IMG/VR virus record: IMGVR_UViG_3300015608_001846
Span: 60,001 to 88,336 of that record
DNA: 28,336 bases
Strand: one strand, 5' to 3'
Source: a virus
In this document: in pieces, positions 2,528-3,912 of the stretch
Layout: every line of letters begins with the position of its first letter
Numbering within the stretch: position 1 is the stretch's first letter
Translations under genes and position numbers: made by a program
The notes under the pieces: generated by a model
What the model saw: the letters and a program-made list of their open reading frames with translations, nothing else
Databases searched by the model: none
What the model was told of the DNA's origin: nothing

Positions 2528-3428
2528 AGTTTCTGTGTTCCAGGTTCGGGATCAAATCGTACACTCCAAGTCGTCGAAGTTCATTGTAGAAGTCGTCCAT
2601 GTAGATGACATCGATGTGTTGGCCTGAAGTCACGATGGCTTTTCGGGCACGTGAGTTTGAATTTAGTAGCTTTGAAAAACGTGATTTACCTTCACGCACT
2701 CCCTTTAGCTCAACGTACCTGTCTTCAGCGCTGAACCAAAAATCAGGAGTGTAGCACTTCTCAACGCCATCGACGACGACATGAAACGCTTTCGCCTCAT
2801 ACTTGGGCGTCACTCCCAAGACGTGCACACAGTATCTGTAGTAGTCAGCCTCAAACGAACTCTTGAAGTATGGACTGTCCACGATGTCAGTACGAAAACC
2901 AGACCGTCCGTTCACATGGGACGCAACCATACCACGCGACTGCGCTTCACGTGTACATCGCTTTCCGCAGAAACGTGGCGTGTAACTCTTCTTTGTGGTG
3001 ATCGGTTTGTCACACATCTCGCAATTGTGCACATGAACATCAACACGTGAAACTGAAAAGCACTTGGGTGAGCAGAACTTTTGTGTTGCCTTTTTGGATG
3101 TGAACTCACGTTTGCAACTCACACACGTCAACACCAACGTCGCAATTTTGGTCAATGCTTTCGCCGTGTGCTTGTATCTACAGGCATTCGAACACAGTTC
3201 ACGAGCGCTGTGACACTTGGACACATAAAACTCATTGCCGCACTCAACGCATGTTTTGACTAACCTCGTCAAAAGAGGCGCACGGGATGCTAGCTTCTTT
3301 TGGGCCCAAGCACAAGCGTCAGAGCAATACTGTCGTCGTAACTTATTGCCAGAACCCTTACCCTTGGGCTCATAGTCAAATCGAAACGTGAGTCTGCAAT
3401 GTTTACATTGTTTCTCAATGATGTTCAT
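2490..3428 (-). CDS. Free-standing putative homing endonuclease: four tandem zinc-ribbon modules plus a C-terminal PD-(D/E)XK-type nuclease domain
   Basis: Four repeats of CxxC-x13-23-[FYL]CxxxC: CKHC..YCSDAC, CVEC..LCSNAC, CVSC..FCSPKC, CEMC..FCGKRC. C-terminus SSFEADYY...CYTPDFWF...RYVELKG gives an E...PD...ExK signature. Lies between IntN2 and IntC2 on the same strand and overlaps both neighbours. Confidence 0.6.
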   Translation of the reverse strand: MNIIEKQCKHCRLTFRFDYEPKGKGSGNKLRRQYCSDACAWAQKKLASRAPLLTRLVKTCVECGNEFYVSKCHSARELCSNACRYKHTAKALTKIATLVLTCVSCKREFTSKKATQKFCSPKCFSVSRVDVHVHNCEMCDKPITTKKSYTPRFCGKRCTREAQSRGMVASHVNGRSGFRTDIVDSPYFKSSFEADYYRYCVHVLGVTPKYEAKAFHVVVDGVEKCYTPDFWFSAEDRYVELKGVREGKSRFSKLLNSNSRARKAIVTSGQHIDVIYMDDFYNELRRLGVYDLIPNLEHRNYADTERLICKHV

Positions 3429-3912
3429 GATGGTACGTATACATCACGTCATCGATCGTCAAGTCTGACGTACGTTTCTTTGTTGGTTTTCCATCAAGTC
3501 CAACCACGAGCCACTCGTGGTTTCCCGAGCACGTGAAGGTGGAGCCGTTCACCTTCACCCGGTATGTTTTCTCGTGTTTCATCGTCACCACGTGGGTGAC
3601 CTCACGAGACGAACCATCTTGTGCAATAACGCTATCACCGACCCTGATATCTCGAAGCGCTGACGTTGACCCGCCAGACATCAAAACGCGCGTTTCAGGT
3701 GAAAGGCAGCGATGGACAGATAGAAACCTTGCGAAAGGCAGGTCCCACTTCAACGGGTCCAAGTCAGTGATGTAGAGGACGTAGGCAACGAGAGAGCCAC
3801 CGCCTGAGTTATGGACTGCGACGCCTTCCACATTGTAGGTGTGGCTGTTCTCAACGCAGAGGTCTACGACCTCACCCTTATACGGAACGACTGTCTTGCT
3901 TTTGAGCTTCAT
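3415..3912 (-). CDS. dnaE: IntC1 (35 aa) + 33-aa DnaE micro-extein (fragment B) + IntN2 (97 aa) in one 165-aa ORF
   Basis: From ATG 3912: [35 protein letters not shown] | [33 protein letters not shown] | [13 protein letters not shown]...[11 protein letters not shown]...HHEHH. The extein matches the conserved DnaE stretch GSxAGSLVAY..ITD.DP......ERFLNPER. The track ORF start at 3954 is less likely because it lies deep inside the upstream gene. Confidence 0.85.
   Translation of the reverse strand: [165 protein letters not shown]
3418..3708 (-). mobile_element. Split intein 2, N-terminal half (IntN2, 97 aa)
   Basis: Cys1 codon at 3708..3706 after extein ...SVHR. Block A [10 protein letters not shown], block B CSGNH. 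The ORF stops without any C-terminal intein blocks. Confidence 0.8.
3808..3912 (-). mobile_element. Split intein 1, C-terminal half (IntC1, 35 aa)
   Basis: [35 protein letters not shown] aligns by eye with the cyanobacterial DnaE IntC pattern (..YDIGVE.DHNF....G...HN). Asn codon 3810..3808, Ser +1 at 3807..3805. Confidence 0.8.

Follow-up and report, generated by a model that had tools for sequence, protein, structure and literature searches.

Fractured genes, in which a free-standing homing endonuclease gene lies between the two halves of a split intein, have been described from metagenomes, and three dnaE loci from the ocean are among them (Dassa et al., 2009; PMC2677866). In engineered tandem trans-splicing a peptide carrying the C-terminal half of one intein (IntC) and the N-terminal half of another (IntN) is placed between two protein halves, and two orthogonal split inteins are used (PMC7210297; PMC12707363). 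The subject here is a natural phage locus: a 28,336-nucleotide (nt) stretch of viral DNA, positions 60,001 to 88,336 of the IMG/VR record IMGVR_UViG_3300015608_001846 and called the window below, and in it a 165-amino-acid (aa) open reading frame (ORF) at 3415-3912 on the minus strand which is composed of an IntC, 33 residues of DNA polymerase III alpha and an IntN. The order IntC-extein-IntN is also that of SICLOPPS (split-intein circular ligation of peptides and proteins), said to have been introduced by Scott et al. in 1999, where the halves of one intein reportedly cyclise the extein.

The explanation we hold to be quite probable is that two independent mini-inteins of different lineages were inserted 33 codons apart, upstream of the catalytic PDIDxD motif, in the phage dnaE gene (Pol III alpha), and that a free-standing homing endonuclease gene, a separate one in each case, later invaded and split each of them. 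The ORFs follow one another in the same direction on one strand, overlap by 4-38 nt and are probably co-transcribed. Translation would give three proteins, DnaE(1-475)-IntN1, IntC1-33aa-IntN2 and IntC2-palm (240 aa). IntN1 with its acidic strand would pair with IntC1 and its basic head, and IntN2 with its basic strand with the acidic head of IntC2; each pair would form a HINT domain and splice by the class-1 pathway using Cys1, the S/TxxH of block B, the terminal HN and Ser+1. The two reactions would yield a contiguous 748-aa N-terminal polymerase chain. The wrong pairing N1-C2 would skip the 33-mer, and C1-N2 would cyclise it, as the topology IntC-extein-IntN does in SICLOPPS. Partner specificity would come mainly from the two lineages, one IMPDH-1/NrdJ-1-like, the other gp41-1-like; the opposite polarity of this clade would disfavour both wrong pairings as an accessory and not as a requirement. 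The polymerase of this very large uncultured phage is probably assembled from separate proteins. On the full contig (L001) dnaE extends over ~11.4 kb as six ORFs, with four split inteins and one intein-less break, in the order N-extein-IntN1; IntC1-33aa-IntN2; IntC2-palm; a GIY-YIG-like/NUMOD endonuclease gene; fingers-IntN3; IntC3-83aa-IntN4; IntC4-C-terminal domains.

Translation of the 165-aa ORF gives IntC1 of 35 aa (3808..3912, minus strand, as are all features below), with the basic head MKLKSK, block F and a block G reading AVHN, then a micro-extein of 33 residues (3709..3807), and IntN2 of 97 aa (3418..3708), which runs from CLSPETRV to TYHHEHH with Cys1 at 3706-3708, block B SGNH, a basic strand and the stop codon at 3415-3417. 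Pfam finds Hom_end_hint over residues 69-141 (E 5e-12) and DNA_pol3_alpha over residues 35-72 (E 5e-10), and the three-part composition given in an earlier note on this DNA is thereby confirmed. The extein is part of the palm domain of DNA polymerase III alpha, directly before the catalytic motif, and matches positions 407-439 of the PHROG 405 DNA polymerase. The DNA_pol3_alpha profile is contiguous over three ORFs, positions 2-66 in the upstream one (5136-6836), 65-102 in the 165-aa ORF and 101-260 in the downstream one (1652-2527). In alleles without intein 1 or without intein 2 the 33 residues run uninterrupted into their neighbour; profile coverage and empty-site alleles together show that the exteins of the three ORFs, once joined, would make one continuous host protein.

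All homologues start with MKLKSK or MAKLKKK, and in the relative L008 just six codons separate an upstream in-frame stop from the ATG of the ORF; both favour ATG 3912 over ATG 3954 and bear out the start assumed before. Gene calls on 16 contigs, which come from several independent samples, include this very protein; the window agrees at 100% of the 7,400 bases compared with a metagenomic contig of 322,887 bp, and the ORF is not an assembly artefact. Public cluster annotations of these proteins read 'hypothetical protein', and one homologue (P0002) is 'intein/homing endonuclease' in JGI. A tblastn search with the ORF gave no cultured phage with at least 80% coverage, the best lead being gp329 of Bacillus phage G, and 50,697 phage genomes searched by megablast with 25 kb of the window contained no match.

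The two insertion sites show a complete series of alleles. Site 1 is empty in P0006 and P0007, with the junction predicted for the ligation product, and site 2 is empty in L014 and L015, which read FARFLSVYR-KGSPDIDTD, again as predicted. The +1 residue at site 2 is Ser where the intein is present (R/SGAPDID, the slash marking the junction) and Lys where it is absent (RKGSPDID), as expected if a nucleophile is needed. Both inteins are contiguous, 33 residues apart, within a single ORF of P0028 (582 aa); in P0029 (454 aa) intein 1 is split and intein 2 contiguous; in L017, P0033 and P0037 intein 1 is contiguous and the site-2 intein split; in the window both are split. L017 and L020 are siblings sharing intein 1; one has it contiguous, and in the other an endonuclease gene splits it. 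The contiguous form of the site-1 intein also occurs in gp329 of Bacillus phage G and on many IMG/VR contigs.

The phage G genes gp329-gp331 (L009 5940-9912) deserve a separate remark. The gp329 ORF, annotated as DnaE-like, carries its contiguous intein at site 1 and ends right at site 2, after FLNPTR; next comes the GIY-YIG endonuclease gp330, and polymerase sequence starts again in gp331. Neither annotated polymerase ORF (gp329, gp331) includes the PDIDxD motif, and Rfam models gave no group I intron or other RNA when the window and the phage G region were scanned. ORFs of 79-89 aa in L057 (9995-10234, on a 304-kb IMG/VR contig), P0119, P0121 and P0141 are made up of IntC1 and the 33-residue extein, after which they end in a short unrelated tail; they have no site-2 intein, and in L057 methyltransferase-like genes come next.

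The residues needed for splicing are all in place. Cys1 of block A is present in both inteins (CFVPETRV in IntN1, CLSPETRV in IntN2), and C69 is invariant in 7 homologues. Block B has T/S-x-x-H as TKDH in IntN1 and SGNH in IntN2, with S129 and H132 invariant, and blocks F and G end in HN followed by Ser+1 (AVHN/S in IntC1; DIEVKDQHTF...LTHN/S in IntC2). H24 (the block F His), H34, N35 and S36 (+1) are invariant in the homologue alignment. Homologues with the same three-part architecture were found down to 45% identity and keep all splicing residues. Against the 81%-identical relative L008 the ratio of nonsynonymous to synonymous substitutions (dN/dS) comes to 0.083 over the full ORF, synonymous sites being close to saturated, and to 0.02, 0.09 and 0.06 for IntC1, extein and IntN2; all three modules are under purifying selection. 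Frameshifts or stops in most relatives, or a dN/dS near 1, were looked for and not seen; frames are intact down to the same 45% identity. A profile search over 1.84 billion representative proteins returned at least nine clusters at 50% identity which are full-length double-ended ORFs of 161-171 aa. The invariant catalytic residues, the purifying selection and the empty-site alleles matching the predicted product all argue for the proposal that the ORF is a natural middle fragment which would be ligated on both sides.

The earlier note hypothesized that one intein had been duplicated to a site 33 codons away, and proper alignment was named beforehand as a test of their kinship. The reference inteins, apart from Npu DnaE, are those of a published supplement (PMC7090010). 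Identity is 34% between IntN1 and IntN2 and 31% between IntC1 and IntC2, which is background among unrelated phage split inteins (gp41-1 and NrdJ-1 share 36%). Orthologues aside, IntC1 matches best to the IMPDH-1 IntC (54%) and next best to the site-1 intein of Bacillus phage G, which is contiguous; for IntC2 the gp41-1 IntC ranks first (51%). Among solved structures intein 1 is related to NrdJ-1 (8ubs, E 1.6e-10) and intein 2 to Prp8 inteins and gp41-1 (6qaz, ~1e-5 to 1e-4); for the IntC2 region (2375..2527) gp41-1 is the top solved match, although a weak one (E 0.25). In a ranking among 16 other inteins, intein 2 is 7th (IntN) and 8th (IntC) for intein 1, and intein 1 is 5th for the IntC of intein 2; intein 1 is the top-scoring IntN partner of intein 2, yet at background score (84, compared to 79 for IMPDH-1). 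The two inteins do not rank as mutual closest relatives across both halves, and the test of kinship came out against the duplication.

The similar IntN starts, with 9 identities within the first 13 residues, share CxxPETRVLM, which is block A. Synonymous differences are found in 4 of the 7 PETRVLM codons, and the first 13 codons agree at 27 of 39 nt; the synonymous differences also rule out gene conversion as the origin of the similarity. In L011 the N-termini share 5 of 13 residues, counted by eye. The endonucleases flanking the two inteins (the 341-aa and 312-aa ORFs described below) are alike only in the catalytic motif, a C-terminal PD...E-x-K. The duplication is thus contradicted by background identities, by different closest types, by synonymous codon differences and by endonucleases unrelated beyond their motif. 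A more plausible duplicate of intein 1 than intein 2 is intein 3a, an extra intein of L008, with 50.6% identity to intein 1 and a nearly identical tail (LTKNRGWVEAQHLTEDDELI).

In solved split inteins the strand before block B (beta3) and the head of IntC (beta6) form a 'charge zipper', and the polarity of gp41-1 is opposite to that of Npu DnaE; a swap of charges in the Npu DnaE strands left cross-reactivity, while it sufficed for orthogonality in an engineered NpuDnaB split intein (bioRxiv 10.1101/546465). NrdJ-1 and IMPDH-1 are orthogonal, both in vivo and in vitro, although their polarity does not differ (PMC7090010 supplementary data). In the window the net charges are -8 for IntN1, 0 for IntC1 with its basic head, 0 for IntN2 with 7 His, and -9 for IntC2; the counts made earlier (IntN1 -8, IntC2 -9, IntN2 neutral, IntC1 with a basic head) proved exact when repeated. 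The inverted polarity postulated for the second pair is real and conserved down to 45% identity, but its location had to be corrected: it resides in the strand before block B and the head of IntC2, not in the tail of IntN2. That tail had been taken to be basic and rich in Lys, Arg and His; by local charge counts it has a net charge of -1 to -4 after block B. At four loci the strand before block B carries -5 to -6 and the IntC head +3 to +5 in intein 1, against +3 to +5 and -3 to -5 in intein 2. Inteins 3, 3a and 4, with -3 to -4 and +2 to +4, carry the polarity of intein 1, and IntC3 and IntN4, which are parts of one ORF, have attractive charges.

The idea that inverted polarity is a general orthogonality mechanism was not upheld. 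The downstream IntN strand was compared in 12 representative double-ended ORFs: 5 have it positive, 3 neutral and 4 negative. A negative strand there, as in IntN1, is seen in the double-ended ORFs of L020, P0056, P0041 and P0036. In L020, which represents a second lineage, both inteins are N-negative/C-positive (-8/+6 and -7/+4). These same-polarity double-ended ORFs (L020/L017), the like polarity of inteins 3 and 4, the orthogonality of NrdJ-1 and IMPDH-1 and the Npu DnaE swaps all go against it. The positive strand of intein 2 also exists in alleles without intein 1 (P0006 to P0008). In the contiguous intein-2 alleles (P0028, P0029) the strands are neutral, 0/0 and 0/-2, compared to +3 to +5 / -3 to -5 in the split forms, which fits the published view that the zipper mainly aids association of cognate halves after splitting. 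A contributory role of electrostatics is suggested since both wrong pairings (N1-C2, C1-N2) would juxtapose like charges in the lineage of the window.

An explanation combining the two rejected proposals, a duplicated intein whose specificity problem was solved by inverted polarity acting as the orthogonality mechanism, is unlikely in our judgement. The 9 of 13 identities at the IntN starts speak for it, but shared codons there differ at synonymous sites, the identities fall to 5 of 13 in L011, overall identities are at background, the IntC halves group with different known types, the flanking endonucleases are unrelated apart from the motif, and intein 3a of L008 is the better copy of intein 1. 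In favour of the part concerning charge are these points: the inversion of the interface strands is conserved in four loci, both wrong pairings bring like charges together, charges were strengthened in split relative to contiguous alleles, and charge engineering did produce an orthogonal NpuDnaB intein (bioRxiv 10.1101/546465). Against this stand the positive IntN2 strand where intein 1 is missing, the negative downstream strands of L020 and the three ORFs like it, inteins 3, 3a and 4 with the polarity of intein 1, and the orthogonality of NrdJ-1 and IMPDH-1 in spite of a common polarity (PMC7090010).

It is less likely still that the intein halves no longer splice and are dimerisation modules only, the polymerase being a non-covalent complex of fragments like NrdA of phage Aeh1. 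For a gene split by a homing endonuclease such assembly has been reported (PMC3045599), and the gene considered here tolerates an intein-less break between pieces 3 and 4; however, all residues of the chemistry (Cys1, S/TxxH, block F His, terminal HN, Ser+1) are invariant, the +1 residue is Ser in occupied and Lys in empty alleles, and an extein of 33 residues (7 in L008) between two bulky intein complexes beside the catalytic aspartates is hard to square with an intact palm. It seems hardly credible that mobile elements have wrecked the polymerase gene, of which the ORF would be a decaying remnant, and that the phage uses the host polymerase: selfish elements do abound here, with at least three endonuclease genes within 6 kb, but dN/dS is 0.08 at saturation of synonymous sites, no piece has lost its reading frame, nor have relatives down to 45% identity, and the same protein recurs on 16 contigs. 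Several points do weigh against the explanation we prefer, two fractured mini-inteins of different lineages. Transcription, splicing activity and orthogonality are deduced from sequence, and a scan for promoters and terminators gave signals at chance level only. For the 341-aa and 312-aa ORFs the name endonuclease comes from weak profile matches and a motif only, and a sequence search for solved homologues of the two gave nothing usable. The intein-less break at 615-1655 implies that covalent joining is evidently not indispensable everywhere in the polymerase. An AlphaFold2 model of the 165-aa ORF from a 7-sequence alignment has a mean predicted local distance difference test (pLDDT) score of 48, residues 1-70 scoring 26-36 and most of IntN2 49-74; this low-confidence model is weakly consistent with IntC1 and the micro-extein lacking a predicted fold of their own, and is too weak to inform on docking of IntC1 and IntN2.

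The order N-extein-IntN / endonuclease gene / IntC-C-extein on one strand occurs twice in the window, at 5136-6836 / 3878-4903 / 3415-3912 and at 3415-3912 / 2490-3428 / 1652-2527. The first piece of dnaE (5412..6836, 475 aa) holds the PHP domain (Pfam E 1.4e-19) and the start of the Pol III alpha palm, profile positions 2-66, and ends VCLVGPGRG. IntN1 (5139..5411, 91 aa) follows, with Cys1 at 5409-5411, block B TKDH, matches to Intein_splicing and Hint, and the stop codon at 5136-5138; the junction and end of the upstream ORF read GPGRG/CFVPETRV...LVDVS. Between IntN1 and the endonuclease gene lies an acidic ORF of 70 aa (4927..5139), which is called as a gene on the source contigs and has no Pfam or PHROG match. 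Its start overlaps the stop of IntN1 (ATGA), and it is missing in L011, where the endonuclease gene directly succeeds IntN1. The putative free-standing homing endonuclease of 341 aa (3878..4903) has a PD-(D/E)XK-type motif (YYPDF...VEVKG), weak Pfam matches to Phage_endo_I and TnsA-like_N and matches to PHROG endonuclease families, and its 3' end overlaps the start of IntC1 by 35 nt. The second putative endonuclease, of 312 aa (2490..3428), has Cys-rich repeats and the motif YTPDF...VELKG and matches PHROG HNH-endonuclease and endonuclease families. It overlaps the end of IntN2 by 14 nt and the start of IntC2 by 38 nt. The HHEHH end of IntN2 and its stop (3415-3428) lie inside the 14-nt overlap with the start of this ORF (ATGAACATCATTGAG), which supplies the last four codons of IntN2; because these codons are shared, the HHEHH tail is constrained by the endonuclease start and need not be a functional part of the intein. 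IntC2 (2375..2527, 51 aa from the ATG) has its first ~12 residues in the overlap with the endonuclease gene, and its functional part is about KIESIEVVDEELDLIDIEVKDQHTFWVSDNGHDWTLTHN. The downstream ORF passes from IntC2 (...WTLTHN/SGAPDIDTD) into the third dnaE piece of 240 aa (1655..2374; stop codon 1652-1654), which begins with the catalytic aspartates and covers profile positions 101-260 (E 5e-17).

Presence or absence of endonuclease genes at the exact split points among relatives fits mobility. The position of the 312-aa gene is conserved in L008, L010 and L011; the 341-aa type is present in the window and L011 and lost in L008. There the 84-nt spacer between IntN1 and IntC1 (L008 9917-10000) keeps ~25 last codons of the endonuclease, with stops (LDRDLKAYMKRANAYHEAQK compared to LDVDLRAYSKKANAYHEAQK); the gene has been deleted from L008 and intein 1 has remained split.

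The third piece of dnaE is separated from the fourth by a 346-aa homing endonuclease gene (615..1655) with NUMOD1, I-HmuI_NUMOD-like and NUMOD3 and a match to PHROG 314 homing endonuclease, which breaks the gene between palm and fingers without intein halves; it was assigned to the GIY-YIG-like type by motif inspection only. The last ~45 aa of the palm piece (1655-1795) resemble the N-terminal part of an intein minus the Cys, in relatives WFEIQLDDGTTRG...ARELGPGDDIVS. This tail is kept in L008, L010 and L012 and has no counterpart in L011, where the gene is unbroken; it may be what is left of a dead intein, now serving non-covalent association. Piece 4 (1..637), with 119 aa of the fingers and the start of IntN3 (CLTGDAKV..., Cys codon 278-280), runs past the end of the window, and its full ORF is L001 13276-14013 with DNA_pol3_finger. 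Just outside the window (L001 15598-16374) lies a second double-ended ORF, IntC3, an 83-aa segment of the fingers and IntN4. Intein 4 apparently begins with Ser (GYGFNK/SCHF...; SLYF in L008), and its insertion is a few residues from the site of the cyanobacterial DnaE split intein. The other genes of the window are of phage type (endonuclease VII, PNKP, ThyX, MT-A70, NT5C), and a tRNA scan found none.

L008 is fragmented further, by the extra intein 3a and by an ORF reading IntC2-SGAPDID-IntN2b. This arrangement (L008 11383-12120 and 14142-14999; also in L010, L012 and L016) leaves an extein of 7 residues, the catalytic aspartates among them. The natural split of intein 2b is close to its C end and gives an IntN of ~190 aa including block F and an IntC of ~18 aa (HSFLxxxxSVVVHN); to our knowledge a split at such a position occurs in engineered inteins only. 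In L010 (12007-17437) the halves of intein 2b are ~5.6 kb apart with some 14 small ORFs between them, far beyond one endonuclease gene, and these ORFs have no family matches. Around the PDID motif, a stretch of 8 residues takes the insertions of three different inteins (R/S, RN/S and PDID/C or T).

From these observations a wider model can be formulated, which we put forward as possible but doubtful. It hypothesizes that a phage lineage of ~300 kb builds its polymerase from at least six separately translated polypeptides, with more ORFs in L008, by means of four to six co-evolved split inteins, all orthogonal to one another, in one cell, with middle exteins down to 33 residues (7 in a relative), and that the inverted zipper of intein 2 would be maintained as a block on exon-skipping (N1-C2) and on SICLOPPS-type cyclisation (C1-N2). 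If splicing is confirmed, the locus would represent natural tandem multi-piece protein trans-splicing, so far reached by engineering only. In the locus and its relatives several split inteins need to coexist on one protein without cross-reaction, and they are candidate orthogonal pairs; the candidate tools include the naturally C-terminally split intein with an IntC of ~18 residues. The allele series of empty site, contiguous mini-intein, split intein with endonuclease gene, and intein split after endonuclease loss permits a direct test of the published model for the origin of split inteins, and permits asking if the charge zipper strengthens after splitting. The active site of the polymerase is an insertion hotspot, with three inteins within 8 residues of the catalytic motif.

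The fractured-gene arrangement, the two charge polarities and the presence of multiple inteins in one gene are known. A literature search found no description of a natural IntC-micro-extein-IntN protein, of a gene assembled via several split inteins, or of a natural split intein with an IntC of ~18 residues; the search was partial, and absence from it is no proof. With the published fractured genes (PMC2677866) the locus shares the order on one strand, the phage origin and the 3' end of the endonuclease gene reaching over the start of IntC, by 35 and 38 nt here and by 6-69 bp in the published cases. Those genes are broken in two, whereas here there are six ORFs with four split inteins and an intein-less break, and two of the ORFs have an IntC at one end and an IntN at the other; the two flanking endonucleases look PD-(D/E)XK-type by weak matches, while the published ones are GIY-YIG or Vsr-like.

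Intein 2 resembles gp41-1 (PDB 6QAZ), for which a reversed beta3/beta6 charge zipper is described (Beyer et al., bioRxiv 10.1101/546465), in its positive strand before block B, its negative IntC head and Ser+1. The 51% identity of the IntC halves drops to about 32% for the IntN halves; intein 2 resides in another host gene and insertion site, its IntC has an extra segment between blocks F and G, and it is known here from sequence alone. Intein 1 resembles IMPDH-1 and NrdJ-1 (Global Ocean Sampling (GOS) metagenome; NrdJ-1 PDB 8UBS) in its acidic-N/basic-C polarity, in the 54% identity of IntC1 to IMPDH-1, in the CFVP... start and in the tail of IntN1 (TKNRGWVEAQHLTEDDDLV, compared to TKNRGYVRADELTDDDELV in NrdJ-1), and differs from them in host protein and site and in the existence of a contiguous site-1 form. 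The middle fragment of engineered tandem trans-splicing is, like the 165-aa ORF, an IntC-short extein-IntN polypeptide which needs two split inteins that do not cross-react; the phage ORF is natural, its inteins have long been co-resident in one gene, and their orthogonality is presumed where in the engineered systems it was chosen or designed. SICLOPPS likewise has IntC, extein and IntN on one polypeptide, but the halves on the phage polypeptide belong to two inteins, and cyclisation would here be an unwanted side reaction.

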